Positions 23,712 through 42,082 of a stretch of DNA of 64,000 bases are shown in pieces. Source of the DNA: Hydrotalea sp. Lineage in GTDB: Bacteria; Bacteroidota; Bacteroidia; Chitinophagales; Chitinophagaceae. The stretch spans positions 25,060 to 89,059 of the forward strand of contig JAKRSC010000027.1 in the NCBI GenBank assembly GCA_022402565.1. Direction: 5' to 3'. The first letter of the stretch is position 1; each line of letters starts with the position of its first letter. The notes under the pieces were generated by a model that made no database searches, had not been told where the DNA came from, and worked only from the letters and a program-made list of their open reading frames with translations. The position numbers and the translations under genes are program-made.

Positions 23712-23719
23712 TACATTTG
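23712..23719 (+). promoter_or_regulatory. candidate -7 box TACATTTG upstream of the zeta-like gene
   Basis: Matches TAnnTTTG, 29 nt upstream of the ATG at 23748. No good TTTG at the -33 position. Confidence 0.25.
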
Positions 23720-23747
23720 CACTAACTAATCATGTAGATTTGCTGAT

Positions 23748-24468: not shown

Positions 24469-24567
24469 TAAAATGCCTATCGCGAAAATTTTTTTAGGTG
24501 GTATGAACAAACTTGATGTATTAAGGTTTTCCTGAAATCTAGAAACCGTGGTTTGTGACTTTTGAAT

Positions 24568-25031: not shown

Positions 25032-25079
25032 TTCCTTTAAGGCCTAAGATAGCGGGCGATAGAAACCAGAAACAACCCT

Positions 25080-26375
25080 TTACAACCTACAATCCACTTC
25101 ATTCCTCGGCAAAACCGACTTGGTATCAAACACCACGGCAGAGGGTGATTTCTTGAGAGATGCTATGTTGAGTTCTAAGAATTCTTTGTGCGCAACTGCT
25201 AAAATAATTCCATCAAATTGGCCTTGAATACTAGACGACAGCTCAATATCATATTCCTTTTTTACTTCATCGGCATGAGCATGCGGGTCATAAACATCTG
25301 GTCGAATTCCATAATCTATTAATTCATTGTAAATATCAACCACACGCGAATTGCGGATATCTGGACAGTTTTCTTTAAAAGTGATCCCTAGTATGAGAAT
25401 TTTAGCGTTTGCAATAAGCATCCCGCTTTTTATCATCATCTTAATCAACTTGGAAGCTACGAAACTTCCCATGTAATCATTCACCCTTCTACCACTTAAA
25501 ATGACTTGTGGATGATAACCGAGGCTTTCAGCTTTATGAGCTAAATAGTATGGATCTACACCAATACAATGACCACCTACTAATCCAGGTTTGAATTTTA
25601 GAAAATTCCATTTAGATCCAGCAGCTTCCAGCACATCGTGTGTATCGATATTCATTTTGTCGAAAATCAAAGCCAACTCATTCACAAAAGAAATATTAAT
25701 ATCACGTTGTGCATTTTCAATGGCCTTAGATGCTTCTGCAACGCGAATGCTGGGTGCCAGATGTGTACCGGCTGTAATAATACTTCCATACAGCGCATCC
25801 ACAAATTGAGCGATTTCAGGGGTTGATCCAGATGTTACTTTTTTAATTTTTGTGAGTGTATTCACCTTATCGCCAGGATTGATTCTTTCTGGAGAATATC
25901 CGCAATAAAAATCGCGCTGGAATTTCAATTTTGAAGCCCTCTCTAGAACAGGCACACAATCCTCTTCAGTACAACCAGGGTACACTGTGGATTCATAAAT
26001 AACCACATCCCCTTTTTTCAATACTTGTCCTACCATTTCAGAAGCCGACAATAAAAAACGAAGATTAGGAGCTTTGAATTGATCAATAGGAGTTGGGACA
26101 GTTATAATAAAGACATCGCAGCGGTTGATATCTTTTAATTGATTGGTAAATTGAAGTCCAATATAACTTGTTGAATCAGCAACTATTGCAGTTTTTAGCT
26201 CTTCGAGATTAGCCTCATTTGTTCTATCTATACCATTTAGAAGTTCTTGAACTCGATTTGCATCAGTATCAAAGCCAATAACAGGGTATTTTTTTGAGAA
26301 AGCAAGTGCCAGTGGTAATCCAACATAACCTAACCCAATCACAGCAATCTTAGTTTGAGATAATTTTTGTTCCAT
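25080..26375 (-). CDS. nucleotide-sugar 6-dehydrogenase (UDP-GlcNAc/ManNAc dehydrogenase type; TviB/WecC/Cap5O-like)
   Basis: Rossmann KIAVIGLGYVGLPLALAF and catalytic-Cys motif GGHCIGVDPYY. The start is taken at MEQKL (26375); an alternative ATG lies two codons upstream (26381). Confidence 0.8.
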   Translation of the reverse strand: MEQKLSQTKIAVIGLGYVGLPLALAFSKKYPVIGFDTDANRVQELLNGIDRTNEANLEELKTAIVADSTSYIGLQFTNQLKDINRCDVFIITVPTPIDQFKAPNLRFLLSASEMVGQVLKKGDVVIYESTVYPGCTEEDCVPVLERASKLKFQRDFYCGYSPERINPGDKVNTLTKIKKVTSGSTPEIAQFVDALYGSIITAGTHLAPSIRVAEASKAIENAQRDINISFVNELALIFDKMNIDTHDVLEAAGSKWNFLKFKPGLVGGHCIGVDPYYLAHKAESLGYHPQVILSGRRVNDYMGSFVASKLIKMMIKSGMLIANAKILILGITFKENCPDIRNSRVVDIYNELIDYGIRPDVYDPHAHADEVKKEYDIELSSSIQGQFDGIILAVAHKEFLELNIASLKKSPSAVVFDTKSVLPRNEVDCRL

Positions 26376-26454
26376 GCACATATTGAAAGGTTATATATCG
26401 AGGATTTACAGAGACCAAATGTACTGGTTGGTGAGGGATATTTCATGTTGATTT

Positions 26455-26590
26455 TTGTCCCCTTTACCGAAATCATCCCGCACGGCCCCTGAGGTTCCCG
26501 AATGGTTAACCGGGGGTTCGAGAGCCTCACCCACCGGCTGAAATTATAGGTCCCTGAAGTTCCCGAATAATAGGGACAGGTCTCGAAGAG
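26455..26590 (+). repeat. repeat modules G + D
   Basis: TTTTTGTCCCCTTTACCGAAATCATCCCGCACGG (compare 31545-31575), then CCCTGAGGTTCCCGAATGG...GGTTCGAGAGCCTCACCCACCGG (found inverted at 31930-31975), then GTCCCTGAAGTTCCCGAATAATAGGGACAGGTCTCGAAG. Confidence 0.8.
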
Positions 26591-26878
26591 TTGTTTTTTG
26601 CCTTTAGTCTTTGGTCTTTGGTGTCATGGCCTTTTTTTGGGAATTCCGAACAAAAATTAGATTGTTTTTTATGTGGGATTAAAAAAATGTATTGCTATAA
26701 GATGTCTATTACATTTTTATTGTTCTTTTCCCTACTTTCTTTTGCTTTCCGCCCCCAAAAAATTTCGGGGGCGGATCACTAAAGGCCTACAGTGCAAGCG
26801 GTCCCTGAGACTTTCCGAAGGACCGGGCTGTTATCAACTAAAGACCAATTCCCAAAGACCAAAGACAGAAAAAACAAC
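26590..26878. repeat. mosaic repeat copy R4: compact 289-bp unit with ~30-bp imperfect terminal inverted repeats (MITE-like)
   Basis: Left end is GTTGTTTTTTGCCTTTAGTCTTTGGTCTTTGG. The reverse complement of the right end is GTTGTTTTTTCTGTCTTTGGTCTTTGGG. Internally it has body B, palindrome 26749-26774 CCGCCCCCAAAAAATTTCGGGGGCGG and a truncated module C. The right end touches the AbiEii stop codon (26878-26880). Confidence 0.85.
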
Positions 26879-27732
26879 TACTCCTTCACCTTCAAATGGT
26901 TCATCAAATCGAGGAAATACTGAGGTGACCAAATCTGTAAGTCTAAGGGTTTTTGAATGAACGGGAGCACATCGACCTTAACCTGCTCCATATTGACAGA
27001 GGTAATTTTTTCAGCCAACATATCCCTTAATTCTGATACAGTAACTGTATCTTTTGACCAGTCGCCGCTTTCTTTTGCACGTTGGGTAAAATGCTGCAGG
27101 TTTAATGGAACACCTTTTCTGATATACCACTCCATATCGTACCAATCTCTTCCTTTTACCCTGTTTTTCCATTTTCTGAATAAGAGCGCATGCATTTTGC
27201 CAGCAAATAAATCGGGTAGCGTAAAGCAATTCACATAAAATGAAAATGGCTTAAGCAACAACAATTGCTCTGTTTCGAATGGTAAAGCGGGATGGGTATC
27301 TACTTCCAGTTTTATTTTGATAGAGGGTTTTACTTTGAGATTCAGTTGAGGGATGGTGTTTTCTAATACCAATTCACTCCACAAAGTTTCTGACTTTAAA
27401 AATGCCGAATCAACGGCTGTTTTAAATGATTTTTGTTTCTGCGCAATGCTTACTTTCAAACCCACTGAATCAAATTCTTGCTCTACGTGTTGTAAGAAAG
27501 GATGCATCTTAAACTCGGGATTCTTTGCTAATAATGAAAAGTCAAGGTCTTCAGAAAATCTATTCAAACCATGAAATATTCTCAAAGCAGTGCCTCCGTA
27601 AAAAGCAGCATACTTAAAAAAATGAGCTCTGTATAACCCTGCTAAAGCCACTTCCTGCATAATTTCTCGCAGTGCGTTCTCTGCACTATACTGGTTTTGG
27701 GGCTGATAACTATCTAACCATTCTTTGATCAT
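26878..27732 (-). CDS. AbiEii/AbiGii-family nucleotidyltransferase toxin
   Basis: 284 aa. FYGGTALRIFHGLNRFSEDLDFSL is the hallmark N-terminal NTase motif of AbiEii. Overlaps the AbiEi gene by 4 nt. Confidence 0.8.
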   Translation of the reverse strand: MIKEWLDSYQPQNQYSAENALREIMQEVALAGLYRAHFFKYAAFYGGTALRIFHGLNRFSEDLDFSLLAKNPEFKMHPFLQHVEQEFDSVGLKVSIAQKQKSFKTAVDSAFLKSETLWSELVLENTIPQLNLKVKPSIKIKLEVDTHPALPFETEQLLLLKPFSFYVNCFTLPDLFAGKMHALLFRKWKNRVKGRDWYDMEWYIRKGVPLNLQHFTQRAKESGDWSKDTVTVSELRDMLAEKITSVNMEQVKVDVLPFIQKPLDLQIWSPQYFLDLMNHLKVKE

Positions 27733-28367
27733 ATTTTACTTAAGTATTGAACGAGTTTTTGAATACTGTTTCTCTTGGGACAAGCATCCAGCCAGGAGTT
27801 GATGAGGCGGCTATTCAATTTTTTCAGTTGATCTTGCTCTATTCGCAAATCTTCTAACAGATACTCCTGCACCTGTTGAACACTTCTCAGTTGCAGCCCC
27901 GCAGTGGTGATCACTTTATCTGTCAAACTTTTTTCAGGACTTGCAATGAGTATGTTCTGTTGTTCTGTTAGATGGATGGATTGCACCCCAACAGGATAAT
28001 ATTCCGTTTGAACATGCTTGAATGAAAAATGGCCTATACTTGTTTGAAAGTTTTTGGAAGACCTCATGGTTATACTAGAAACTTCATACACCCTTTCGGG
28101 TATTAAGCCCCAATAATGCAGTGCTGAATCAGTAGAAATATAACTGGGTCCATACAGATGGTTGGCCACCAAAAATGGCTCCGGGGCAGCAATACCGGCT
28201 AAGGCAGTAGGAATGTATAGTCCCCGCCTGATTTGCTTTAAATAGCCTTGCGCTACCATTTCCATGATTTTATCATAGGGTCGATGGTAATCCTTGAGTA
28301 TGCCAAGTAGTACAGACGTGCTCAAAGGCTGTTGGGAATACTGTCTGAGTTGTTGCCGCCAGTCCAT
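27729..28367 (-). CDS. AbiEi-family antitoxin/transcriptional regulator
   Basis: 212 aa. An N-terminal winged-helix-like region (..MVAQGYLKQIRRGLYIP) is followed by a C-terminal AbiEi_4-like domain. Sits immediately upstream of AbiEii and is translationally coupled to it. Confidence 0.7.
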   Translation of the reverse strand: MDWRQQLRQYSQQPLSTSVLLGILKDYHRPYDKIMEMVAQGYLKQIRRGLYIPTALAGIAAPEPFLVANHLYGPSYISTDSALHYWGLIPERVYEVSSITMRSSKNFQTSIGHFSFKHVQTEYYPVGVQSIHLTEQQNILIASPEKSLTDKVITTAGLQLRSVQQVQEYLLEDLRIEQDQLKKLNSRLINSWLDACPKRNSIQKLVQYLSKI

Positions 28368-28386
28368 TTGCCAAATTTAACTATAT

Positions 28387-28407
28387 AATTCGGAAAATTT
28401 CCGAATT
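28387..28407. promoter_or_regulatory. perfect 10-1-10 palindrome AATTCGGAAAATTTCCGAATT; candidate AbiEi operator
   Basis: Lies 20-40 nt upstream of the AbiEi ATG (28367), 8 nt upstream of a -7-like box (minus strand TAAATTTG, 28372-28379). AbiEi proteins are known to autoregulate through inverted repeats in their promoter. Confidence 0.45.
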
Positions 28408-28433
28408 AAAGTGCATTTTTTAGCAATAATTCT

Positions 28434-28644
28434 AGTTTTCGGTCTTTTGTCTTTAGTATTTGGTCTTTGGTGTATGGAACTCCAAACAAAAATTAGACTG
28501 TTTTTTATGTTTGATTACAACAATGTATTCCAAGCCTAGCTGGGCACAGCGGTCCATCGGCATGCTAAGAGACCGCTTGCACTTTAGGCCTTTAGTGATC
28601 CGCCCACAAAATTTTTTGGGGGCGGAAAGCAAAAGAATGTAGGA
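28434..28644. repeat. mosaic repeat copy R5 with internally inverted C/P/B-tail modules
   Basis: Heptamers at 28434-28468. The B head is GGTGTATGGAACTCCAAACAAAAATTAGACTG.... Then comes AGCCTAGCTGGGCACAGCGG...ACCGCTTGCACTTTAGGCCTTTAGTGATCCGCCCACAAAATTTTTTGGGGGCGGAAAGCAAAAGAATGTAGG, which is the reverse complement of the P+C order seen in R1, R4, R7 and R8, with an internal deletion. Confidence 0.85.
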
Positions 28645-28740
28645 AGAAGAAGAAAAGGAATAAGTTGATCATATTATATCCAAGCAGTTACCAAGGAGTC
28701 TTCAAGCAAAAAAGAAAGAAAAACAGGCATTGAAGGATCA

Positions 28741-28860
28741 CGTTCCCACGATGGGAGGCCCCGAATCGCACTTCGAGAGCCTCAGGGACCGTGCGGGGTG
28801 ACGATAAAAAAGAGGGTTTCCCTACGATGAATGTCGGGACTGCAAGCCCGCTTTTGAAGC
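28741..28860 (+). repeat. repeat module F/D fragments
   Basis: CGTTCCCACGATGGGAGG...CTTCGAGAGCCTCAGGGACCG...ACGATGAATGTCGGGACTGCAAGCCCGC. Compare 31811-31866 (CGTTCCCACGACGGGAGATCCCCAACGATGAATGTCGGGACTCAAAGCCCGC). Confidence 0.8.
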
Positions 28861-28896
28861 AAGAATGATACTTAAAAGTAGCAAGTAACCCTTTAT

Positions 28897-31329
28897 CTAC
28901 CTCGTTATTTGCCAAATTAAAAAACCAGTGGTTGTGAGTGTAGATAAGGCTGAAATAAAAATACCAGCTCTAGCGAGATCAAAACCTTTAGATGGTTGCT
29001 TTTGAGGTACCACTACTAATGACCCAGGTAATACTTTGGGATTTTTAGGAATGAACCCAAGAACATACTTTTTGGTTTTGGATTTGCCATTTGCGTAGGT
29101 TACATAAATACTCTTCTTTTTTGCTGTTTCATTTAAACCACCAGCCATTTGAATAAAATATTGAAGCTTGGTGCTTTTTTCAAATACATAGGTACCAGGA
29201 TTATACACTTCACCACTTACAACCACATAATCATTCTTTTTAAGGAAAACCAGCTCATCTCCTTCTTCCAAAATTAAGTCGTTTACAGAGCCTGGTGCTG
29301 CCAATGCTTTTCCTAATTCAACATACAGATCTTTATTAATAGCTAATTGTACTTTTTTAATGAGCGTTCCAGAGGAATCCTTTGACTCAGATTGAGCAAG
29401 TTGTTCAATGGATGTTGAGTCAATTTTTTCTGAAACTCTTCTCTTAATTAGAGCTACTTGCTCGTTAGCTGTATATTTCAATCCACCTGCTCGTTTCAAA
29501 AATGAACTAACCCTTTCTGAACCAGTTTTTAGAACATACGAACCTGGATTTATAACCTCACCAGAAACATTCACAACTTTTGGCTGAGATAAGTAAGGAT
29601 CTTTTCTAACTGTTACCCTGTCATAGGGCTCTAAGAGAAATTCAGAAGATTGTTTTGAAAGTGTACCTTCATTTAATTCAATTACAAACAACTTGCTAAG
29701 CTCACCACCTAGTTGCTGTGTACTGCTATCTCTTACAACCCGGGCAACTTCAATTCTATCTATAACTGCATCATAAACAAACCCATTTGCCAATACCAGC
29801 AGGGCTTCTAAAGTCATTCCTTTTTGAAAGACCATTTGACCAGGCTTTTTTACAGCGCCATCAATTTGTACGGTCATTTCCAAAGCTAAGTCTCGCTTTG
29901 AAGGAACAGTTATTTCATCATCCTTTATTAAAACCCAATTATATAAACTAGGATTCAGCATAATGCTATCATAAGAGAAAGAATAGAACTCCTTATTCTT
30001 CCGATCATCGGACAGTCTAGCTAATTGAATTCTACCTCGAAATGCATCTTCCTTTAATCCTTCCGCTTTTTCTATCAAATCCTTTATATTCATTTTAGGT
30101 TGCAATGAATAAGCTCCGGGTCTATAAACAGCACCAGAAATTTGTACTCGGTTTTCAAAACGGTCTAATACAGATCCTACTGTTATAACATCTCCATCCA
30201 CCAATTCGGTTTTTGATAATGAGTCTGATAATACATCTATCATTTTTTGCTCTTTGCCAGTAATTCTTGTAATGGAAAGCAGGTTTTTAAAAGCCCTTGC
30301 CGAGAATCCACCTGCGTATTCTAGAAGTGTGTTGACTTTCTCATGAGCCAACATTTCAAATTGAGCAGGTTTATTCACTTCACCTTGTAAGGTTACTTGA
30401 ATCTTTGCATAAGGAATACGAATCACATCATCATCATGCAATAACACATTATCACTTACTTGACCATATACCAAGAATTTATACAAATCAGCCTTTAAAA
30501 CCACTTTCCCATTTCTAATGAGTTCTACTTCCCTTAATGAACCATTGGCTAATGGTCCCCCACTTTGATAAAGCGCATTAAATAAGGTTGTTAAACTAGG
30601 AACATTATAAGACCCAGGGGCAACAACCGCTCCTAAAATGGTTATTCTTATTGAACGAATGTTTCCTAGAGATAACATCAGTTTTGACTTGCCATTAGCT
30701 AATCCCGGATAAATTTTTGAGAGGGCTTTAGAAAGTTTAATTTTTGCTTCTTCGATACTTAGTCCATTTAATAAAACTGGGGGAATGTATTTATAACGAA
30801 CCATACCCTCAGAATTGATTAGTAAATTGAATTGAATGTCTGTACTTCCATGAATATCTACTCTGAGCTCATCTTCAGGTCCAAGACGATATTGAGTGGG
30901 CGTGGACATACGTAAATTGGGGGTAAAACTTAACTTATCGTTTGAAAACCATTCCAACCCAAAGATGGATGTCTCTTTAGGCTTTGGATTGGTACTAGTT
31001 AATTCAGTTCTCTGGATTTGACGTGCTTTTTGTTGGGGCAAGCTGGATGGACTTGATGGACTTGATGGCAATGAATTTCTAAGATCATTCACCCTCATCA
31101 TAATTTTCCCCATTTCATCCGATGATAATCCTCTTTTTAAAAGTTCATTTTGAATAAATTCGTCAGAATAACCTTCCGCATTTGCTTTGGCAATTAATTG
31201 CTTCAATTGATCATCACTAATGTTTTCTGATTTAATAGTAGGTAACATAGTGATTACCTCTTGGCATAAACCTTGTTGGAGAAAGGTAGAAACCAAAATC
31301 CCGGCTAGAATAAAAATTCTAAGAAACAT
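28897..31329 (-). CDS. second Wza-like multi-SLBB polysaccharide export protein (paralogue of 20094..22508)
   Basis: 810 aa with the same architecture as the first Wza: signal peptide, N-terminal helical module (SDDQLKQLIAKANAEGYSDEFIQNELLKRGLSSDEM), YRLGPEDELRVDIHG, repeated SLBB units and a C-terminal TM helix. Monocistronic, with repeats on both sides. Confidence 0.8.
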   Translation of the reverse strand: MFLRIFILAGILVSTFLQQGLCQEVITMLPTIKSENISDDQLKQLIAKANAEGYSDEFIQNELLKRGLSSDEMGKIMMRVNDLRNSLPSSPSSPSSLPQQKARQIQRTELTSTNPKPKETSIFGLEWFSNDKLSFTPNLRMSTPTQYRLGPEDELRVDIHGSTDIQFNLLINSEGMVRYKYIPPVLLNGLSIEEAKIKLSKALSKIYPGLANGKSKLMLSLGNIRSIRITILGAVVAPGSYNVPSLTTLFNALYQSGGPLANGSLREVELIRNGKVVLKADLYKFLVYGQVSDNVLLHDDDVIRIPYAKIQVTLQGEVNKPAQFEMLAHEKVNTLLEYAGGFSARAFKNLLSITRITGKEQKMIDVLSDSLSKTELVDGDVITVGSVLDRFENRVQISGAVYRPGAYSLQPKMNIKDLIEKAEGLKEDAFRGRIQLARLSDDRKNKEFYSFSYDSIMLNPSLYNWVLIKDDEITVPSKRDLALEMTVQIDGAVKKPGQMVFQKGMTLEALLVLANGFVYDAVIDRIEVARVVRDSSTQQLGGELSKLFVIELNEGTLSKQSSEFLLEPYDRVTVRKDPYLSQPKVVNVSGEVINPGSYVLKTGSERVSSFLKRAGGLKYTANEQVALIKRRVSEKIDSTSIEQLAQSESKDSSGTLIKKVQLAINKDLYVELGKALAAPGSVNDLILEEGDELVFLKKNDYVVVSGEVYNPGTYVFEKSTKLQYFIQMAGGLNETAKKKSIYVTYANGKSKTKKYVLGFIPKNPKVLPGSLVVVPQKQPSKGFDLARAGIFISALSTLTTTGFLIWQITR

Positions 31330-31368
31330 ACAATAGATGAATTGAAAATGTTATGGGGGGACAAGTGG

Positions 31369-31376
31369 CAAATATA
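31369..31376 (-). promoter_or_regulatory. candidate -7 box TATATTTG upstream of the second Wza gene
   Basis: The octamer is identical to the one at 22639-22646 (minus strand TATATTTGC). It lies about 40 nt upstream of the ATG at 31329. The -33 element is poor (TTTC). Confidence 0.25.
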
Positions 31377-31508
31377 TGAATCCTAGTTGATTCTAACAGA
31401 AATAGTAAACTCATCAAAAAGCCAGGCAATTACTAGTAGACATATATTTTCACTGATAATTAGTGTGATGTTAACCAACCAAGGACGAGAAAAAAATTAC
31501 CAGCGGCT

Positions 31509-32010
31509 GGTCTTTAGTTTTTAGTCTTTAGTCGTTGGCTGTTGGTTTTTGTCCCCTTTTCCGAAGTCATCCCTAACTTGATCAGGGATCTGTTGTTAAT
31601 GAACGCAGTAACCCAGAAGCTAATAATGCTTTTATTGAGTGAAGAGGGTTGGTGGAGTTACGTTTCTACTACAGGAGATCCCGCATTAAATGCAGGATGA
31701 CGTTATGGGGAGGGGCTGGATGACGTTCTTGGAGCGTGCGGAATCTGTTTTTTTGAATGCGGTAACCGAAAGGCCTATTATTCTTATTATGAAAGGGGAT
31801 GGTTTGGTTACGTTCCCACGACGGGAGATCCCCAACGATGAATGTCGGGACTCAAAGCCCGCATTGCCCCTTCGAAGCCTGTCCCGGCCCTTCGAGAACC
31901 TCAGGGACTGGGCATTCGGGAAACCTCAGGTAACTGCTCTCGAACCCCAAATCATAATTCCATACCGGTGGGTGGCCTTCCGGAAACCTGAGGAACCAAT
32001 CATTTCAGCC
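31509..32010 (+). repeat. mosaic repeat region R6 (heptamers + G + 2xE + F + D-type modules)
   Basis: 31509-31550 holds 6 degenerate heptamers. Then come TTTTTGTCCCCTTTTCCGAAGTCATCCCT and the E units (GGGATCTGTTGTTAATGAACGCAGTAACCCAGAAG; GCGGAATCTG..GAATGCGGTAACCGAAAGG). F is at 31811-31866. D-like CCCCTTCGAAGCCTGTCCCGG...CATTCGGGAAACCTCAGG follows. The 116-aa ORF at 31690..32040 lies wholly inside this region. Confidence 0.8.
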
Positions 32011-32023
32011 GGTAGCTGGCCTA

Positions 32024-32311
32024 TTATCTTGTACCAATAGGGGCAACTTGAATTTGTCCGCCCAATGCTTTTAGAACTTTTAGAATTGTAGTAAATTGTG
32101 GTTTAGATCCTTGTGCCAGCGATTTATATAAACTGGGTCTGCTTAAGCCAGTATGTTCAGCAATTTTCGTCATTCCAATAGCTTTTGCAACATGTCCAAT
32201 TGCTGCAATTATTTCATCATTATTGCCCTCTTCCAACACTGTATTTAAATATTCAGCAATCATTTCATTGCTTTCTAAATAATCTGCTATTTCAAATTTT
32301 GAGGTTTCCAT
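32024..32311 (-). CDS. addiction-module antidote protein, HigA family (HTH)
   Basis: 95 aa. YLESNEMIAEYLNTVLEEGNNDEIIAAIGHVAKAIGMTKIAEHTGLSRPSLYKSL..KPQFTTILKVLKALG is the typical layout of this antidote family. Confidence 0.75.
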   Translation of the reverse strand: METSKFEIADYLESNEMIAEYLNTVLEEGNNDEIIAAIGHVAKAIGMTKIAEHTGLSRPSLYKSLAQGSKPQFTTILKVLKALGGQIQVAPIGTR

Positions 32312-32314
32312 TGC

Positions 32315-32618
32315 CTACTTTTTAATCTTGTTCCAAATTTCTTTTGCTTTTTCAATATCCTTTTGCTGGGTAGACTTATCACCTCCAACTAAAAGAATAA
32401 TAATTCTACCATCTGTTTCCTTAAAATAAACTCGATAGCCCTTTGAATAGTTTATCCTCAACTCTTTAATTCCACCACCCACTGGTTTACAATCGCCAAA
32501 ATACTCTTCCTTTTCTAATCGTTGATTGAATTCGAAATAAAATCTTAGCCTTTGCGGTTATGTCATTTAATTTCCTCAGCCATTTATCGAATTCAGTAGT
32601 CCTTTCTATGAGAAACAT
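32315..32618 (-). pseudogene. frameshifted addiction-module killer gene (RelE/ParE superfamily, HigB-like partner of the antidote)
   Basis: The ATG at 32618 gives MFLIERTTEFDKWLRKLNDITAKAKILFRIQ, then a stop 15 codons later. The +1 frame continues QRLEKEEYFGDCKPVGGGIKELRINYSKGYRVYFKETDGRIIILLVGGDKSTQQKDIEKAKEIWNKIKK* with its stop at 32315-32317. The frames are reconciled by removing one copy of a tandem TCAA-TCAA (plus strand TTGATTGA, 32522-32529). Confidence 0.75.
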
Positions 32619-32728
32619 GGCAAATAACGTATTCACTTGGATACAAAATTATGTCAAAAAAGTAATCCAAGAAATTAATTTTAGAGACTTCTACTAACGA
32701 ACATTTGAGAACCACTTTTTTAACCTTT

Positions 32729-33076
32729 GGTTGTTGGTCATTTTTTGGTCTTTTGTCTTTGGTCTTTGGTGTCATGGCATTTGTTATTGGAACTCCAAAT
32801 AAAAGTTAGATTGTTTTTTATGTGTGATTACAAAAACGTTTTGGTATAAGAAGCCTATTGCATTTTTATTGTTCTTTTCCCTACTTTCTTTTGCTTTCCG
32901 CCCCCAAAAAATTTTGGGGTCGGATGGTTCGAATTGCCAAAACATCACTAAAGGCCTACAGTGCAAGCGGTCCCTGAGGCTCTCGAAGGGCCGCGCGTTT
33001 TGGCTGGCCAACGCCACCATCGCTGAGTGCCTGCTGTCCACGTGCTGCTCAGCGAGCCGCTGTGTCCAGCTAGGCT
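32729..33076 (+). repeat. mosaic repeat copy R7 (heptamers + B + P + C)
   Basis: Heptamers at about 32729-32767. Body GGTGTCATGGCATTTGTTATTGGAACTCC.... Palindrome at 32899-32923, with an extra segment (about 20 nt) containing GGTTCGAATTGCCAAAAC. Full module C ends ...GCTCAGCGAGCCGCTGTGTCCAGCTAGGCT. Confidence 0.9.
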
Positions 33077-33177
33077 TGGCCATACGTATTTATTAAAAGT
33101 GGAAAGTAACCATTCAACAGATTTTTTTCTACCATCTCTTTTGCTTGAAGCCCCTTTCAAGTGCAACGTTACATGTG

Positions 33178-33255
33178 GGGACTAAAAGCCCGCATCGCCC
33201 CTTCGGCACCTGTCCCGACTATTCGGGAGGTTCAGGGCAAGCATTCGGGAACCGC
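33178..33255 (-). repeat. module F-tail/D, inverted orientation
   Basis: GGGGACTAAAAGCCCGCATCGCCCCTTCGGCACCTGTCCCGACTATTCGGGAGGTTCAGGGCAAGCATTCGGGAACC is the reverse complement of the D units at 22981-23055. Confidence 0.8.
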
Positions 33256-33276
33256 AGTGACTAGGCAAGAAAATCC

Positions 33277-33520
33277 AAAGACCAACAACTAAAGACCAAC
33301 AACTAAAGACCAAAGACCTACTTCCAACCAAAGACCAACAACTAAAGACCAAAGACCTACTTCCAACCAAAGACCAACAGCTAAAGACCAAAGACCTACT
33401 TCCAACTAAAGACCAACAGCTAAAGACTAAAGACCTACTTCCAACTAAAGACCAACAGCTAAAGACCAAAGACCTACTTCCAACTAAAGACCAACAGCTA
33501 AAGACTAACAAACAAAGACT
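33277..33520 (-). repeat. higher-order tandem repeat: 5 full 39-bp units (plus partial ends) built from AAAGACC-type heptamers
   Basis: Units start at 33291, 33330, 33369, 33408 and 33447. The unit is AAAGACC-AACA(A/G)CT-AAAGAC(C/T)-AAAGACC-TACTTCC-AAC(C/T), i.e. 5x7+4 nt. The period was verified from CCTAC positions 33317, 33356, 33395, 33434 and 33473. 39 nt equals 13 codons, which explains the artefactual 114-aa ORF at 33182..33526. Confidence 0.95.
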
Positions 33521-33533
33521 TATCATTTCCCCC

Positions 33534-33541
33534 TATTTTTG
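33534..33541 (+). promoter_or_regulatory. candidate -7 box TATTTTTG for the GT2-led operon
   Basis: Matches TAnnTTTG, 17 nt upstream of the TTG start at 33558 and 14 nt after the tandem array. The -33 position falls inside the array and has no TTTG. Confidence 0.25.
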
Positions 33542-33557
33542 ATAAAAACCATATCTC

Positions 33558-34454
33558 TTGCTCGTATCCATCATTATTGTACATTATCAATGCTTACCCG
33601 ATTTGGAACAATGCCTTCAATCCATTCAACAGCATGTTCCTCTGTACAATAAAGAGGTATTGGTGGTTGATAATGCCAGCATAGAACCTGAAAAATGGAC
33701 CTCCTTTGCTTCAAAATTTTCGTTTGCTTCTTTTTTTCAGCTTCCTGAAAACATTGGCTTTGGCAGGGCTAATCAGTTTGCTATCGATCGAGCTAAAGGC
33801 CAATATCTTTTTCTCTTGAATCCCGATACAGTGCTGGAATCTGATGTATCTGTTCCTTTTCTTGCATTCATGGAAAACCCTCTTAATGCTGCGGTTGGCT
33901 GCTGTGGAGGCGAATTGTATGCAACATCGGGCAGACCAGTTACTTCTTATGGCAATTTTCCCTCACTTTTTCAAAGCTTTGCTTCACTTGGATTTTATTT
34001 GTTTTTTAAATCGTTTTACTACCGAAAATTATCGCTGGGCTCTGCTAATACTTATACCCAACCTACTCGAGTAGACTATATAGCCGGTGCCGATTGGTTT
34101 GTTAGAAAGGAAGTATTGGTTTCTGTAGGGGGCTTTGACCCAGATTTCTTCCTGTATTTTGAAGAAACAGAACTTGCCTGGAGATTGCAAAAGGCAGGAT
34201 ACCAAAGCTGGATTTTACCTCATGTTCGTATTCGACATGAAGAAGGGGGCGCAAGCGGACATAACCAAGAACGATTCAACGCCTTTGCATATAGGCATTA
34301 CCTGAGAAGCGAACGCCTGTTTTATCAAAAAACGAAAGGGCCTTTATACGGATTCATCGCCATTCCTCTCCATCTCACTTCCATGACGCTTCATTTGCTG
34401 GCAAAAGGGAAGTTGGGTGAATGGATTGCACGACTCAAAGTTTGGTTCTCATAA
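33558..34454 (+). CDS. family 2 glycosyltransferase (GT-A)
   Basis: 298 aa, TTG start. VSIIIVHYQC...VVDNAS...NIGFGRANQ...LLNPD (DxD-equivalent) and a rhamnosyltransferase-like C-terminal half. Confidence 0.8.
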   Translation: MLVSIIIVHYQCLPDLEQCLQSIQQHVPLYNKEVLVVDNASIEPEKWTSFASKFSFASFFQLPENIGFGRANQFAIDRAKGQYLFLLNPDTVLESDVSVPFLAFMENPLNAAVGCCGGELYATSGRPVTSYGNFPSLFQSFASLGFYLFFKSFYYRKLSLGSANTYTQPTRVDYIAGADWFVRKEVLVSVGGFDPDFFLYFEETELAWRLQKAGYQSWILPHVRIRHEEGGASGHNQERFNAFAYRHYLRSERLFYQKTKGPLYGFIAIPLHLTSMTLHLLAKGKLGEWIARLKVWFS

Positions 34455-34481: not shown

Positions 34482-35651
34482 ATGATTGAATCGCTTCGCA
34501 TTTTGCTCATCCACCAACCCTATCGCTTGTATGGCGGTGAGGACCGGGTATTTGAGCAAGAACGAGATGCACTCATCCAAGCTTTGGGAAAGAACCAGGT
34601 ATGGATCTATGGAGCAGATACAGTTTATAGCCCTACCTGGCAACTGCCTTTCCATTTGTTACATTCAAAGGAGCATTATAACAAAGTATTTCAGCTGGTC
34701 CAGGAGCATCGTATTCAGGTTGTACATGTTCATAATTTTTTCCCATGGCTTTCACCTTCCGTTTTTAGAGCAGCTAAAGATGCTGGGGCTGCTGTAGTGC
34801 ATACGCTGCACAATTATAGGCGCTGGTGTGTAAAGGGTGAACTCTACCTCGAAAAAAAGGGGATTTGTGAACAATGCATCGAATCGAAAAGTCGCTGGCC
34901 TGCTGTGCAACAGGCTTGTTATCGTAGTTCCACCTTACAGAGCCTGGCAGCATCTGTGGCTTTTAGCCAATTTGAAAGCAAAGGCGATTGGGAAGCTGTA
35001 GACCGATTTATAGTATTATCTAAGTTCCAAGAAAAATGGGTACTTGAAAGAGGTATTCCACCTGAAAAACTGGTGTATAAACCTAATTGGATTGGCCATC
35101 ATCCTTCTGTTCCCATTGAACGCAGAAATGGACTGGTTTGGGCAGGTCGATTAGAACCTTCTAAAGGAATTGACCTGTTATTAAATGCCTTTCAACAAGT
35201 GAGTCTCAACATTCCGCTTACTATTGTTGGAAGTGGTTCGCTTGAAGCAGCTCTTAGAAAGGAATATGCGCTTGATGAGCGCATTGAATGGAAAGGATTG
35301 CAATCGCCTGAAATGACCCGACAAATCATAGGTTCGGCTCGATACTTACTGCAAACATCTCTTTGGTATGAAACGTTTGGTTTAACCATTTTAGAAGCCA
35401 TGCAAATGGGTGTGCCGGTCATTGGATTTCCTATTGGAACGAGAACCGAGTTCATTGAACATGGCAATAATGGCTTTTTAACCGAACCTGGTGCTTTAGC
35501 CGAAACCATTCAGCTTGTGTACGATTCAGCCAACTATCCTTCGCTTTCCAAAAATGCTTTTACTTTTGCATCCACCTTCGGTCAGGATCAAATATTGTCT
35601 TCTCAGTTGCAATTGTATCGATCACTTATCACAAATTATGAGTCAACATAA
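34482..35651 (+). CDS. family 4 glycosyltransferase (GT-B)
   Basis: 389 aa. GRLEPSKGIDLLL and ETFGLTILEAMQMGVPVI..........E (EX7E region). Confidence 0.8.
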   Translation: MIESLRILLIHQPYRLYGGEDRVFEQERDALIQALGKNQVWIYGADTVYSPTWQLPFHLLHSKEHYNKVFQLVQEHRIQVVHVHNFFPWLSPSVFRAAKDAGAAVVHTLHNYRRWCVKGELYLEKKGICEQCIESKSRWPAVQQACYRSSTLQSLAASVAFSQFESKGDWEAVDRFIVLSKFQEKWVLERGIPPEKLVYKPNWIGHHPSVPIERRNGLVWAGRLEPSKGIDLLLNAFQQVSLNIPLTIVGSGSLEAALRKEYALDERIEWKGLQSPEMTRQIIGSARYLLQTSLWYETFGLTILEAMQMGVPVIGFPIGTRTEFIEHGNNGFLTEPGALAETIQLVYDSANYPSLSKNAFTFASTFGQDQILSSQLQLYRSLITNYEST

Positions 35652-36369
35652 GTTTAAAAAGGTTTTCATCATAGCTTCCCCCAATGAACCGGAGGATAGA
35701 AAAAAGAATGTAGCCGCTCTCCTTGAACTCATTCCTGAAGCAACAATACAACCAGCCATTTATCCTTCTATTACAAAAGTGCCCTTTCTTGAACGTTTAA
35801 AAGACCTCAGTGCAGCAAGAACTGGAACACGACTTAATAACGGGGAGATTGGAATTTTACTTACCAATCGTTCTATTTGGAGGTCTATTTTACAGATGGA
35901 AGGCAATTCAACCGATAAGTTTCTGATTTTAGAATCAGATAGCACCATCAACAATCTTCCTTTTTTTCTGGATAAAGGAAAAGAAATAACTGATGGGTAT
36001 GATATGTTTTTTTTAGGCGCATGGTCGGGGAATATGAAGTTGAAGAGAAGTACTATTCAAACTGTTTCATTGCCTTTTAAAATTGGTGTGCCTTATATGA
36101 AAAGTGTTTGCTGTGGGTATGGCTATGTGGTGAATACGCATGCGGCTTCTCAATTGCTCCAATTCACCAAAAAAATTGGCCATCCTGTTGATGAGTTTAA
36201 AAAATATTTACCCAAGAATATTTTTAGGATTGGAGGAATTATGCCCGAACTGATTTCGGAACTACCCTATTCCACTACCATTGGTCACCCGAATTATGGC
36301 AATCCTTTGTTTCGCGCTAAGATGTTTTTAGTGCATCTTCGCAATTCCCTAGTATCTTACTTTTCATGA
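35638..36369 (+). CDS. family 25-like glycosyltransferase (LPS/LOS beta-1,4-galactosyltransferase type)
   Basis: Start placed at the ATG at 35638 (MSQHKFKKVFIIASPNEPEDRKKNV...). The N-terminal 41 codons of the track ORF overlap the GT4 gene. LNNGEIGILLTNRSIW resembles the GT25 GEIGC motif region. Confidence 0.55.
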   Translation: MSQHKFKKVFIIASPNEPEDRKKNVAALLELIPEATIQPAIYPSITKVPFLERLKDLSAARTGTRLNNGEIGILLTNRSIWRSILQMEGNSTDKFLILESDSTINNLPFFLDKGKEITDGYDMFFLGAWSGNMKLKRSTIQTVSLPFKIGVPYMKSVCCGYGYVVNTHAASQLLQFTKKIGHPVDEFKKYLPKNIFRIGGIMPELISELPYSTTIGHPNYGNPLFRAKMFLVHLRNSLVSYFS

Positions 36370-37625
36370 GTGTACTTCTTCAACTATATGTTCGGCTGTT
36401 TGTGTTTGTATATGGTCTCTACACATTTTTTAATCGTGGTGTAGCCTATACTTACTTAGCTGAAGCGGTTTGGTTAATTGGAATGGTATTGGTGGTGCGT
36501 TATAGAAAGCAACTCTCCTTATCACGCGATAGAAGTATGCTTGTTTTACTCTTGTTGCTTTTCATTAACCTAATTTACATGGCTCGAGGCTTTGCAGCCT
36601 ATCCTTTCATGGAAGTTGTACGAGATAGTTTCATGCTACAATATGCAGGATTCGTAGTCATCATTGCTTTGCTTAGACCCTATCACCAACAAATTCTTGC
36701 TGGCTTTGCTGTGGTGTATACATGGTTTCCTTGGGTTGTTTGCACAACTTTTTTGTTGCGAGCTTGGGATCCTTATTGGAACCAACTGTCCTTGTTTGGT
36801 GGCATTCCTTTGTTCGTTTATAAAAACGGCGATATGGCAGTTCATTTGCTGATTGGAACTTTATTGCTGCTAACTGGGAAATTGGAGTTGAAGCCTCGGA
36901 TGTACCTTTTACAATTGGTGGTAACCGCGTATTTGTTTTTGTTAACTGCCACCTTTAACAGAGGAGGCATGTTGTCTTTTGTAGTAGGTATATCAGTTTA
37001 TTTTTATTACATCAGAAAAACTGCTTTTGCACGTCAAATATTCCGCTACATGCGTCTGGCGCCGCTCCTGCTTTTAATTGCTATTCCATTGTATACAGCC
37101 ATTAAAATTGAAGATAAGTCGCAAGGAAGGAATACCGGTTTGAAACAGTTGGAACAAAATGTTACGAGTATAGTTAGTAGAAAGGTGGAAGGCGGATTGA
37201 ATGATAATGTGCTATGGCGATTAGCTTGGTGGGGGAAAATTATTGATTACACCATATTGGGACCGTATATCTTACATGGAAAAGGATTGGGTGTGAATTT
37301 ATCGGTTGATGATGATATACCTATGGAAGACGATTCATTGCGTTCGCCTCATAATTTTCATATGAATATTTTGGCTCGCTTTGGATTACCTATTGCTATG
37401 TTGTGGCTGTATTGGATGTACTTGATCTTTCAACCTTTATTCCGAAAAGGACTACCCCTGCAACAATTGTTTTACATTTCAGCAATCATTGCATTTTTAG
37501 TGAATGCTACTTTTGATGTGGCTTTGGAAGGCCCAATGGCTGCTATGCCTTTTTGGATTATTGTAGGATTATATATTGATACAGGTGCGCAAGAAAAACT
37601 TACTGAACCTTTAGCTTACATTTAA
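36366..37625 (+). CDS. O-antigen ligase/polymerase-family membrane protein (Wzy-like)
   Basis: 419 aa, at least 10 TM segments. Has the Wzy_C-type loop TFNRGGMLSFVVG. ATGA overlap with the upstream gene. Confidence 0.6.
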   Translation: MSVLLQLYVRLFVFVYGLYTFFNRGVAYTYLAEAVWLIGMVLVVRYRKQLSLSRDRSMLVLLLLLFINLIYMARGFAAYPFMEVVRDSFMLQYAGFVVIIALLRPYHQQILAGFAVVYTWFPWVVCTTFLLRAWDPYWNQLSLFGGIPLFVYKNGDMAVHLLIGTLLLLTGKLELKPRMYLLQLVVTAYLFLLTATFNRGGMLSFVVGISVYFYYIRKTAFARQIFRYMRLAPLLLLIAIPLYTAIKIEDKSQGRNTGLKQLEQNVTSIVSRKVEGGLNDNVLWRLAWWGKIIDYTILGPYILHGKGLGVNLSVDDDIPMEDDSLRSPHNFHMNILARFGLPIAMLWLYWMYLIFQPLFRKGLPLQQLFYISAIIAFLVNATFDVALEGPMAAMPFWIIVGLYIDTGAQEKLTEPLAYI

Positions 37626-38932: not shown

Positions 38933-39270
38933 GGTCTGTGGTCTTTGGTCTTTGGTCTTTAGTCTTTGGTCTTTAGTCTTTGGTTGGAAATGTTTTTTAC
39001 CCTACCTACACCCTCGAGTAGGAATCTCCCGTCGTGGGAACTCAATCATTTAACTCCTATTCTTTATATCCCTACTTTCTTTTGCTTTCCGCCCCCAAAA
39101 AATTTTGGGGGCGGATCACTAAAGGCCTACAGTGCAAGCGGTCCCTGAGGCTCCCGAAGGGCCGCGCATTTTGCCTTGCCCACGCCACCATCGCTGAATG
39201 CCTGCTGTCCACGTGGTCCCTGAGTATGCCGAAGGGTGCTGCTCAGCGAGCCGCGGTGTCCAGCTAGGCT
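38933..39270 (+). repeat. mosaic repeat copy R8 (heptamers + inverted F + B-tail + P + C)
   Basis: About 8 heptamers at 38933-38988, starting 9 nt after the flippase stop. GAATCTCCCGTCGTGGGAAC is inverted F. CCCTACTTTCTTTTGCTTTCC follows. Perfect palindrome 39089-39124 CCGCCCCCAAAAAATTTTGGGGGCGG. Full module C runs to 39270. Decayed pieces continue to the next gene: a hairpin remnant at about 39385-39415 and AATGACC-AAACACC at 39516-39529. Confidence 0.9.
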
Positions 39271-39538
39271 AAACAATTCGTTCTTAATTTAATTTCTTAA
39301 AGTCCAAAGCACCGTTTTTTGTCTTCACAAACCACTATGACAGATTCATTCGTAGCTGAGTAATCAATTCCAATTCTTCTTATCCCTACAGTTTTTCAAG
39401 AAAAAGAAAGTAACAGATTGTTTAAAAGAAATTCATGTATTTCATCAGGATATCTGCTACCGTGAAAAGGTTATAGCAATACTTCAACACCTTAAGTGAA
39501 AGGGTTTGGCAACCCAATGACCAAACACCACCATCCCT

Positions 39539-39970
39539 CTACCCTACATTCCTTTCAAAATTTTCCAAAGGATGATTGCGCCAATTGGGATCGTATTTTA
39601 CAAACCAACTGATCCATAAACTTCTTGATAAACGCATAAAAAGAGGCTGCAAAACAATTAACAAAACTGCGTTGGTAGCTAACCAATAAAACAAACTATT
39701 GTCCATGATAGAGATGCCCAATAAAACCCACCAAGCTATAAAAGTGGCAACCGAAAACGCAACAGTCAAAGCATAGCTTACATATCCCGTTCCATAGTAA
39801 AATCCAACTTCAATTTCAGTTGGCTGACCACAAACTGGACAGGTTGCATGCATGGTTGTTATCTTATTGAGGATATATGGATTTTTATGTACAAATAAAT
39901 TTCCCTCACGACAGCGAGGACATTTACATTGAAGCGTAGCACCTAAATATGTAGAACTCTTCTTACCCAT
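39539..39970 (-). CDS. DUF983 domain-containing membrane protein
   Basis: 143 aa. CPRCREGNLF...CPVCGQPTEIEVGFYYGTGYVSYALTV followed by two TM helices. Confidence 0.7.
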   Translation of the reverse strand: MGKKSSTYLGATLQCKCPRCREGNLFVHKNPYILNKITTMHATCPVCGQPTEIEVGFYYGTGYVSYALTVAFSVATFIAWWVLLGISIMDNSLFYWLATNAVLLIVLQPLFMRLSRSLWISWFVKYDPNWRNHPLENFERNVG

Positions 39971-40087
39971 CTTACATCACTTAATTTAGTTTCAAAGGTA
40001 ATAAGGATCACAAATGCTTCATGTGATAAATGTTACTGAAAAACAAGCTGTTCAACAGATGTATTATCTTTATCCGCAAAACAGCAC

Positions 40088-40219
40088 ATGAATCTATTAC
40101 AAGTTGCTGCCGATTCAACATCTTTCGGCTACAGAATTGGGTATCAAATTGGCTCTTGGGTGCCCTTTGTATTCATTGCAGTGCTGGTATTTGCTATTCT
40201 CCGTAAACAAAGACGTTGA
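40088..40219 (+). CDS. 43-aa micro-ORF encoding a single-TM peptide, coupled to pnuC
   Basis: MNLLQVAADSTSFGYRIGYQIGSWVPFVFIAVLVFAILRKQRR. Its TGA (40217-40219) overlaps the pnuC TTG start (40216-40218) as TTGA. Below the ORF-track cutoff. No homology evidence available. Confidence 0.3.
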   Translation: MNLLQVAADSTSFGYRIGYQIGSWVPFVFIAVLVFAILRKQRR

Positions 40220-40851
40220 ACCAGTTCATTACTTCATTTTGGGAAGGACTCACACAAACCAGCTTGTTAGAATATATAGCTGTCATTGCTGGCATTGTGA
40301 GTGTTTGGTTCAGTCAACGTGAACAAGTTTGGGTATATCCAACTGGTCTCATCAATACTTCATTATTCATTTATATCTGCTGGGAAGGTCAGCTTTTTGG
40401 AGAAGCTAGCGTGAACCTTTATTATACCATCATGAGCTTATACGGATGGTGGCTGTGGACTAGAAAAAATGAACAAGCAGAAACTGTTTGGAAGATTCAA
40501 TTTTCGACCCAGAAAGAATGGGTTATGCAACTCTTGTTCTTTGGCGTAACCTATGGCTTGCTGTTTTCAGCAATCAGCTGGTTGCAAAGTTCATTCGCTC
40601 CAGATGCTATACCATGGGCTGATGCCTTAGCAAGTGCAAGTGCATACACAGGCATGTGGCTCATGGCAAGAAAAAAAGTGGAAAGCTGGTATTGGTGGAT
40701 ACTTACAAACATTACTTCCATTCCTTTGTTCTACATAAAAGGTTATGTATTTACAACTGTACAGTTCATGGTTTTATTACTGATGGCATTGTATGGTTGG
40801 AAAGCATGGCAAAAAAAAGCATTGATTCAAGAGGAAAGTAAAACTGAATGA
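40216..40851 (+). CDS. pnuC: nicotinamide riboside transporter PnuC
   Basis: 211 aa with about 7 TM segments. SLLEYIAVIAGIVSVWFSQREQVWVYPTG... and WYWWILTNITSIPLFYIKG are typical of PnuC. Confidence 0.8.
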   Translation: MNQFITSFWEGLTQTSLLEYIAVIAGIVSVWFSQREQVWVYPTGLINTSLFIYICWEGQLFGEASVNLYYTIMSLYGWWLWTRKNEQAETVWKIQFSTQKEWVMQLLFFGVTYGLLFSAISWLQSSFAPDAIPWADALASASAYTGMWLMARKKVESWYWWILTNITSIPLFYIKGYVFTTVQFMVLLLMALYGWKAWQKKALIQEESKTE

Positions 40852-41390
40852 GTTTAAAAAAAGTAGTAATACTAGGACCTGAGAGCACTGGAAAAAGTAC
40901 TTTGTCGGCCGCTTTGGCCGATCATTTTCAGACATATTGGTGCCAAGAATATGCAAGGGAGTACCTTCTAAAGCATGGCAATAAATATAGCTTGGAACAA
41001 CTCACTGAAATTGCAAAAGGGCAATTAGCATTAGAAGATGCATACACACAAAAAGCAATAGATGATGGGAAGTCATTGTTGTTTATTGATACCGATATGC
41101 AGGTAATGAAAGTGTGGAGTGAATATGTTTTTGGCACCTGTGACCCTTTTATTCTTGAAGCTCATGCTCAACGGTCGTATGATTTGTATTTATTATGCGC
41201 ACCCGATTTACCTTGGGTTGCAGATGAATTGAGGGAATATCCCGATGAAGGCCCACGTAAAGAACTATTTGCAATATACCAATCGCATTTAGCGATGCAA
41301 TCTACACCTTGGGTGGTCATTAGTGGTTTGCAAGAAGAGCGAACAAAAATGGGTATTCAAGCAGTTGAACATCATTTAATGAGCTGTTGA
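40848..41390 (+). CDS. NadR-C-terminal-like P-loop kinase (ribosylnicotinamide kinase type)
   Basis: 180 aa. VVILGPESTGKSTL Walker A. ATGA overlap with pnuC. The pnuC plus AAA-ATPase pairing is the classical NR salvage arrangement. Confidence 0.65.
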   Translation: MSLKKVVILGPESTGKSTLSAALADHFQTYWCQEYAREYLLKHGNKYSLEQLTEIAKGQLALEDAYTQKAIDDGKSLLFIDTDMQVMKVWSEYVFGTCDPFILEAHAQRSYDLYLLCAPDLPWVADELREYPDEGPRKELFAIYQSHLAMQSTPWVVISGLQEERTKMGIQAVEHHLMSC

Positions 41391-42082
41391 ATATCTGAAT
41401 CATCTTCCAAATTATTCATTTGACGAATGATCCAGTTTTTCTTCCAACCAACAAACCGACTCATTGGTACAACTGTATATTTTTTAGGATTAGGTAAACA
41501 GGCTATAATCTGCGCAGCTTCTTGTCGGTTTAATTTTGATGCTGATTTTTTGAAGTAGTGTTGCGCTGCAGCTTCTATACCAAATATACCCGGACCCATT
41601 TCAATGCAGTTCAAATACACTTCTAAAATTCGCTTTTTACCCCAAACCAATTCAATCCATGCAGTGAACCAAAACTCTGGAATCTTACGTAGGTATTTTG
41701 TAAATCCAGAACCCTGCCACAAGAAAACATTTTTTGCTACTTGTTGAGAAATTGTGCTCGCACCTGCTCCTCTAGGTAATTTCTTTTTTCTCTTGCTTGG
41801 CTTTTCTGGGTCAAGACTTTTTCGGAGAGCTTCCCAGTCAAAGCCATGGTGATCAGTAAATGCTTGGTCTTCACTGGCAATAGCTGCGAGCTTTACATGT
41901 TTACTAATTTCATTGTAAGCCACATAATCGCGTTTAAGTCCATATTGTACACCCTGTACCATTTGGGTAATTGTAACGGGTGGCATCATCCATTTACAGA
42001 TCAAGAGATAAATACTGGAACTGATAAGCATCCAATAAAATATGCGTACAATTTTCCGAAATACTCCTTGCTTAATTTTCAT
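41372..42082 (-). CDS. mtgA: monofunctional peptidoglycan glycosyltransferase (GT51)
   Basis: 236 aa. N-terminal TM, SEDQAFTDHHGFDW, GASTISQQVAKN and RKIPEFWFT motifs. Its 3' end overlaps the convergent kinase gene by 19 nt. Confidence 0.85.
   Translation of the reverse strand: MKIKQGVFRKIVRIFYWMLISSSIYLLICKWMMPPVTITQMVQGVQYGLKRDYVAYNEISKHVKLAAIASEDQAFTDHHGFDWEALRKSLDPEKPSKRKKKLPRGAGASTISQQVAKNVFLWQGSGFTKYLRKIPEFWFTAWIELVWGKKRILEVYLNCIEMGPGIFGIEAAAQHYFKKSASKLNRQEAAQIIACLPNPKKYTVVPMSRFVGWKKNWIIRQMNNLEDDSDIQQLIK

Follow-up and report, generated by a model that had tools for sequence, protein, structure and literature searches.

The intergenic regions of enterobacteria contain REP/BIME elements, which are mosaics of a few short modules, GC-rich hairpins included, that recur at many gene boundaries. 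Another kind of intergenic repeat consists of heptamers in direct repetition, among them TAACTGA, which is abundant in marine Beggiatoaceae, in Cyanobacteria and in some Bacteroidetes (MacGregor 2015, PMC4679880). Sets of TAACTGA stand in forward orientation before start codons and in reverse orientation just after a stop codon, differences between strains are "mostly indels in 7 nt increments", and contigs of relatives end in repeats (PMC4679880). Moreover, a role in gene rearrangement has been suggested for the long TAACTGA arrays, and binding proteins have been proposed for the repeats (PMC4679880). Dispersed heptamers of variable copy number and over-represented in non-coding DNA also comprise the cyanobacterial STRR repeats and the GGGNATC repeats of Xanthomonas and Nostoc, and the G-rich strand of GGGNATC is reported to be sense within 50 bp after stop codons and antisense within 50 bp upstream of ORFs (Rehm et al. 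2015, PMC4692102). A gene-specific heptamer, (ATCTTTC)n, is found upstream of hmw1A and hmw2A of Haemophilus influenzae, where expression is graded with repeat number and this number varies among isolates (PMC12721329, PMC8262952). The hmw1A repeat is transcribed as part of the 5' UTR and acts via a hairpin processed by RNase III (PMC12721329).

The window, i.e. the whole 64-kb stretch of Hydrotalea DNA analysed here, contains a 39-nt tandem array directly upstream of a surface-glycan operon (Table 1). We favour, with moderate confidence, the view that this array forms the terminal module, on the gene side, of a mosaic repeat (32736-33520) and belongs to a lineage-wide (AAAGACY)n family of Hydrotalea-like Chitinophagaceae. 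Since such arrays stand beside many unrelated genes, instability at a boundary is a more probable explanation than a dedicated on/off switch. Arrays of this family face outward at the ends of mosaics, change their number of heptamers between strains and coincide with the points at which flanking sequences diverge.

Table 1. Coordinates of the array, its surroundings and the downstream operon in the window
Feature	Position	Strand	Basis
Four-heptamer array, left end of mosaic 32736-33520	32736..32767	-	census
GC-rich dispersed mosaic module cactaaaggcctacagtgcaagc...ccagctaggcttgg	32940..33080	.	module comparison
Distal partial unit, 14 nt: AAAGACC AACAACT	33277..33290	+	parsing in register
Five full 39-nt units	33291..33485	+	TRF, parsing, exact-match unitigs of run X1 at fitting depths
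Degenerate promoter-proximal unit: AAAGACC AACAGCT AAAGACT AACAAAC AAAGACT	33486..33520	+	parsing
Unique 13-nt spacer TATCATTTCCCCC between array and -7 box	33521..33533	+	sequence
Predicted Bacteroidota-type -7 box TATTTTTG	33534..33541	+	motif, conservation
GT2 glycosyltransferase, TTG start conserved in relatives	33558..34454	+	Pfam
GT4 glycosyltransferase	34482..35651	+	Pfam
GT25-like glycosyltransferase	35638..36369	+	Pfam; start from 243-aa gene call, contig L081
Wzy_C-domain polymerase/ligase-like membrane protein	36366..37625	+	Pfam
Polytopic membrane protein, possibly flippase, 431 aa	37629..38924	+	hydrophobicity
Seven-heptamer array, 8 nt past the operon's last stop codon	38933..38981	-	census

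TRF detects a 39-nt period at 33286-33505 (5.6 copies, 97% matches, score 405), and together with our own parsing this yields the same structure that an earlier note on this DNA had described, namely five full units plus partial ends within 33277-33520. Each full unit follows the formula AAAGACC AACA[A/G]CT AAAGAC[C/T] AAAGACC TACTTCC AAC[C/T], i.e. five heptamers followed by 4 nt, so that the array contains heptamer variants such as AACAGCT, TACTTCC and, in its last unit, AACAAAC. The unit subtypes distinguished in the earlier note are exact, as unit 1 equals unit 2, unit 3 equals unit 5 and unit 4 departs from unit 3 by a single base (AAAGACT), and the near-identity of the units points to the recent stepwise duplication that had been proposed. 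The plus strand of the array consists to 79% of A and C and folds with only -0.7 kcal/mol over 244 nt. Three other interpretations of this segment were rejected. A CRISPR-like array is at odds with units devoid of unique spacers and with the lack of cas genes nearby, and iterons are at odds with the lack of rep genes nearby. An ORF on the minus strand (33182-33526, 114 aa), which crosses the array and has only a sub-threshold match to DUF7011, was dismissed as a gene; it is probably spurious and raises the question of DUF families that contain translated heptamer repeats. Rfam and tRNA scans of the 64-kb window gave no matches.

An origin of the array in misassembly was rejected on the basis of run X1, probably the sample from which the window derives, whose contigs are identical to the window, with zero differences, and in which the single-copy flanking contig has a depth of about 19.6. 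Exact-match unitigs over the unique unit junctions show depths of 17.6-25, compared with 19.6 for a single copy, two-copy segments of the array show about 39-40 and the three-copy segment shows about 56. A 33-nt piece (33293-33325), which occurs twice in the window and has a depth of 56.7 (about 2.8 times single copy), constitutes the exception, and the depths of all other pieces agree with the assembled structure. They fit a single five-unit allele, and variant junction unitigs are absent from these contigs, which drop rare variants; at unitig resolution, this one-allele picture is still compatible with phase variation at its usual rates.

Between the array and the operon, TATTTTTG is the only perfect TAnnTTTG on the plus strand of 32041-33557, and it ends 16 nt ahead of the TTG start. 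The pattern occurs in the window at a frequency of 0.48 per kb per strand, and seven transcription units of the window, the glycan operon among them, have it 4-40 nt ahead of their first gene. In the related loci L001, L083 and L084, the box has the form TACTTTTG, and both the sequence CATTTCCCCC ahead of it and the TTG start codon are conserved among these Hydrotalea loci. The -33 position would fall inside the degenerate last unit, and a TTG at this position is absent in the window as well as in the relatives. A sigma-70 and terminator scan of 32300-33700 returned matches no more numerous than in shuffled sequences, sigma-70 not being the relevant type for Bacteroidota. Judged by motif and conservation, the operon is thus presumably transcribed from the predicted -7 box that follows the array at a distance of 13 nt, while read-through from an upstream operon is unlikely because the upstream genes sit on the opposite strand. 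These observations bear out the promoter arrangement given in the earlier note (a -7-like box at 33534-33541, TTG at 33558 and the -33 position inside the array), and its use of a -7/-33 model is apt for Bacteroidota. The further claim that a change in unit number would shift or replace upstream promoter elements finds no support, since the predicted -7 box is not part of the array and its fixed last unit contains the -33 position, so that internal 39-nt changes would leave both the spacing and the sequence of the core promoter intact. Internal changes could act only via whatever lies farther upstream.

For the contingency (phase-variation) locus proposed in the earlier note, with expression dependent on copy number, the array argues weakly. 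In such a scenario, the gain or loss of 39- or 7-nt steps would shift promoter elements or factor-binding sites in a heritable and reversible manner and thereby tune the operon like a volume knob, which we consider unlikely. It is true that a slippage-prone repeat of near-identical units adjoins the promoter of a surface-structure gene, ending 13 nt upstream of the -7 box, that the target is a surface-glycan operon, and that a heptamer precedent exists in the (ATCTTTC)n repeat of H. influenzae hmw1A (PMC12721329). However, the proximal junction of the array is a fixed degenerate unit, the unitig depths of X1 agree with one allele, the unique junctions having roughly single-copy depth, and the hmw repeat is transcribed (PMC12721329), whereas here the only -7 box lies downstream of the array. 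On the motif-based promoter call, a repeat number that alters promoter spacing or a repeat that is itself transcribed, which would be expected of a contingency locus, is not found.

The array is one member of a family. With up to one mismatch, the pattern AAAGACCAAAGAC occurs 40 times in the window compared with 0.15 occurrences expected, so the array is not a product of chance. A census revealed 12 arrays of (AAAGACY)n with 3 to 19 recognisable heptamers each, starting at 22707, 24568, 25004, 26606, 26818, 28441, 31509, 32736, 33277, 38933, 43424 and 52643. All 12 lie between genes, overlapping at most briefly with small ORFs from a mechanical listing, and a 7-nt period is reported by TRF at 12 sites. 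A higher-order period is also present elsewhere, namely 14 nt at 43418-43474 (TRF). The neighbours of the arrays are functionally unrelated and comprise two Wza-like exporters, a zeta-like ATPase, ugd (UDP-glucose dehydrogenase), AbiEii/AbiE, a HigA-type antitoxin, a methyltransferase/S10 peptidase pair and a LysE transporter. Nevertheless, the AAAGACC strand points to the nearest gene in 12/12 arrays of the window and in 5/5 arrays of L084; in the window, the repeats are forward upstream of six gene starts and reverse after six stop codons, at distances of 5-10 nt or, at most, 235 nt. The earlier note had treated the array as a feature of the glycan operon, a notion that finds no support, as it is one of 12 arrays that adjoin unrelated genes and obey a general polarity rule, and the presence of the same, likewise varying arrays beside such genes also speaks against dedicated tuning of this operon. 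Yet the 33277 array is the longest in the window and lies 13 nt from its promoter, compared with about 60-183 nt for the other arrays, which leaves room for an effect on transcription.

A strict polarity, held by 17 of 17 arrays, is also what might be expected if the arrays served as multi-site platforms for a putative protein that binds AAAGACC/GGTCTTT and has a global role at gene boundaries. Such a protein would recognise either double-stranded DNA or single-stranded DNA or RNA, for example by an OB-fold of the CSP/S1 type, and its occupancy would be high on the long array beside the operon promoter. The retention of the same heptamer in two species, the unstructured A/C-rich strand and the binding proteins proposed for TAACTGA repeats (PMC4679880) are consistent with this idea. 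On the other hand, the polarity is equally expected if the arrays are the inverted ends of one mosaic element, no size is preferred among their lengths, which span 3 to about 35 heptamer-equivalents, the heptamers degenerate freely (AACAGCT, TACTTCC, AACAAAC), and no candidate protein was found. Taken together, a protein platform appears improbable.

The mosaic organisation, to which we return as the preferred reading, is apparent from the sequences that accompany the arrays. The same AT-rich module of about 130 nt occurs on the inner side of five arrays, GC-rich hairpin modules are likewise found more than once, and a GC-rich dispersed module, of which the part at 32970-33077 has a word depth of 10-20 times single copy in four metagenomes, lies within the mosaic upstream of the operon; short modules thus recur and are combined in intergenic regions, as in other mosaic repeats. 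At the left end of the same mosaic, the 32736 array faces a divergent HigA-type antitoxin unit with a -7 box at 32644-32651 on the minus strand. Each long intergenic region is most simply described as a mosaic repeat with inverted heptamer arrays at both ends. Annotation of ORFs at 20-55 kb showed no transposase gene.

Some further features of these regions were recorded. The GC-rich module at 32970-33077 carries cactaaaggcctacagtgcaagcggtccctgagg...ccgctgtgtccagctaggcttgg, has additional copies at about 24880-24940, 26760-26830 and 28530-28600, and has no Rfam match. A palindrome, gcccccaaaaaattttggggg, marks the inner edge of several mosaics (32900-32921 and about 26740, 38990 and 22940) and resembles the stem of a bidirectional terminator; a simple terminator scan of 32300-33700, which covers the copy at 32900 only, called none. 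Positions 1-22000 of the window hold a second glycan cluster on the minus strand with a GC content of 0.28-0.36 and zero AAAGACY arrays, compared with twelve at 22-53 kb; this low-GC cluster may be a recent acquisition.

The operon downstream of the array had been described as GT2-GT4-GT25-Wzy-Wzx. The first four assignments stand by Pfam (GT2, GT4, GT25 and Wzy_C), whereas the Wzx has no HMM match: the fifth gene gave zero matches in Pfam and NCBIfam even at E = 10, and its product is a predicted membrane protein with 12 overlapping hydrophobic stretches, which correspond to roughly 10 separate helices. The label Wzx is a plausible guess for this protein, which may represent a divergent flippase family. 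The longest ORF for the GT25-like gene begins at 35515. The nearest relative of the GT2 protein, with 72% amino-acid identity, is encoded by an uncultured Hydrotalea MAG (L001), and more distant relatives occur in Chitinophagaceae and Sphingobacteriia. In addition, a 2.5-kb block of housekeeping genes of the window shares 85.7% DNA identity with the metagenome contig L084, and the runs that hold sequence of the window derive from freshwater, drinking-water, bioreactor and aquifer metagenomes. The relationships of the GT2 protein and of the housekeeping block mark the window as DNA of a Hydrotalea-like member of the Bacteroidota.

Among 80 loci with GT2 relatives, the repeat is present in L001 only, with eight matches; an unrelated Bacteroidales locus (L023) has a single match at chance level, and the Sediminibacterium loci have zero. 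The orthologous Hydrotalea site features a plain heptamer array, followed by the same -7 box and TTG. A metagenome scan with the conserved promoter string retrieved one locus only, L084. Exact-protein look-ups of the GT2 and its 98% and 70% relatives led exclusively to short-read Logan contigs ending inside the array, and all strain comparisons given below use short-read metagenome contigs, which break in repeats. In a strain with a GT2 of 98% identity, represented by contig L082 and runs X3 and X5, an extra heptamer, CTAAAGA, follows position 33497 and adds 7 nt at a distance of 36 nt upstream of the -7 box. L001 and L084 share 99.07% identity over the 5561-bp operon and 100% over a stretch of about 190 nt reaching from the promoter into GT2. 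Nevertheless, they carry about 8.6 and about 3 heptamers, respectively, and their upstream flanks are unrelated, with the break lying within the array. Repeat length at the operon site thus differs between strains as well as between species, in agreement with copy-number tuning. Other arrays, however, vary alike in 7-nt steps, for instance that at 38933-38981, which is 28 nt shorter in X5 (at 38934) and has a counterpart at the same place in L001 and L084, and that at 31509-31550, which is 7 nt longer in X5 (at 31525). Hence, the variability at the operon site is no evidence of a selected switch. Positions 1-180 of L001 contain two near-identical heptamer blocks of about 52 nt that are 122 nt apart, with an opposite AAAGACC AACAGCT AAAGAC block between them. 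This duplication is a further case of higher-order periodicity, as at 43418-43474; by its AACAGCT, the opposite block shows that a variant heptamer of the 39-nt unit recurs at another locus of another species.

The abrupt change of flanks exactly at the array between 99%-identical operons (L001 and L084) also suggests that the arrays might be recombination junctions of a cassette system, in which exchange from array to array adds, removes or swaps units beside glycan loci. A variable island at 22.5-33.5 kb would then have the long array as its right border. The gene content of relatives is in keeping with this. In X3 and X5, depth is zero over the zeta-like ATPase (23.7-24.4 kb) and over AbiEii/AbiEi (26.9-28.3 kb), X3 also lacks ugd and the second wza-like gene, and a 26.9-kb contig of X5 joins 22704 straight to 28447, both ends coinciding with arrays of the same orientation. 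Moreover, a block at 39520-42055 (8624-11158 in L084) has the opposite orientation to the glycan operon in L084 when compared with the window, and it has repeats on both sides there; it carries a 143-aa ORF, an NMN transporter, an AAA_28 kinase-like gene and a transglycosylase. What looks like a 5.7-kb deletion in X5 is only suggestive, because shared modules beside the arrays make the placement of short contigs ambiguous. Contigs of short-read metagenomes break or are mis-joined in repeats, homology could come from the shared modules beside the arrays instead of from the arrays, and no recombinase was found. A cassette system, which is compatible with the mosaic-boundary explanation and not exclusive of it, is possible though doubtful. 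A more specific version dispenses with a recombinase: all intergenic mosaics of Hydrotalea-like bacteria would end in (GGTCTTT)n...(AAAGACC)n, and exchange between such arrays would add, remove or invert cassettes of one or two genes, such as defence or toxin-antitoxin units, sugar-nucleotide genes and exporters, around surface-glycan loci, and the 39-nt array, as a hyper-expanded right border next to the operon promoter, would couple rearrangement to glycan expression. This version, the kinds of cassette included, strikes us as quite unlikely. As an observation in its own right, the region 22500-33560 of the window looks like a variable cassette island bounded by repeats.

Returning to the array as the terminal module of a mosaic, its structure can be accounted for by a simple sequence of events. 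A 39-nt block of five already diverged heptamers would recently have been amplified by slippage or unequal recombination, and the higher-order periodicity would have arisen in the manner known from satellites. The array would probably be neutral and at most act as a passive spacer between the promoter and the hairpin-rich upstream mosaic, and its length polymorphism would reflect the general instability of the repeat family as opposed to a switch evolved for the operon. The persistence of an array at this site in two species with GT2 proteins of 72% identity could nevertheless be due to selection and not to self-renewal by slippage.

If copy number did tune the operon, the locus would be one of the rare examples in which a repeat drives variation of a surface glycan in a free-living freshwater member of the Bacteroidota, and the variable step would be a higher-order unit in place of the usual unit of 1-7 nt. 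The better-supported reading adds a Chitinophagaceae lineage and the new heptamer AAAGACY to the poorly understood polar intergenic heptamer repeats. What is new here is the occurrence of heptamer repeats as inverted ends of mosaic intergenic elements, together with a higher-order period, and heptamer arrays mark points at which near-identical strains differ in gene content or flanks. Since the arrays break short-read assemblies, such loci are systematically cut in MAGs.

With respect to the systems described before, the AAAGAC[C/T] unit differs from TAACTGA, CCCCAGT, TTGGTCA, CAACAGT and GGGNATC, and we take it to be one base off the complement of STRR2. The arrays share with the known heptamer families a head-to-tail 7-nt unit, dispersed non-coding locations, a fixed polarity and strain differences of 7 nt; judged by these features, the AAAGACY repeats are of the same kind as the described intergenic heptamer repeats but form a separate family. 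Their likeness to TAACTGA extends to the tandem 7-nt unit, the many intergenic sets, the polarity, the 7-nt steps, the mixed heptamers and the assembly breaks, whereas the heptamer itself is another one, larger mosaics carry the arrays in inverted orientation at their two ends, and the 33277 array has a 39-nt higher-order period and lies upstream of a predicted promoter, not directly before a start codon (PMC4679880). AAAGACY arrays obey the same strand rule at starts and stops as GGGNATC, but GGTCTTT lacks a G-tract and shows no preferred copy number, unlike the G-tracts, quadruplexes and favoured four units of GGGNATC (PMC4692102). The present locus and hmw have in common that tandem heptamers closely precede a gene for a surface structure and that their number differs between isolates, although the hmw repeat is specific to its genes and the AAAGACY repeat is generic (PMC12721329, PMC8262952), and, in contrast to the transcribed hairpin of hmw1A, the array strand is unstructured and the only -7 box lies downstream of it (PMC12721329). 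Finally, in contrast to REP/BIME elements, the ends of the mosaics described here consist of heptamer tandem arrays and not of REP palindromes.
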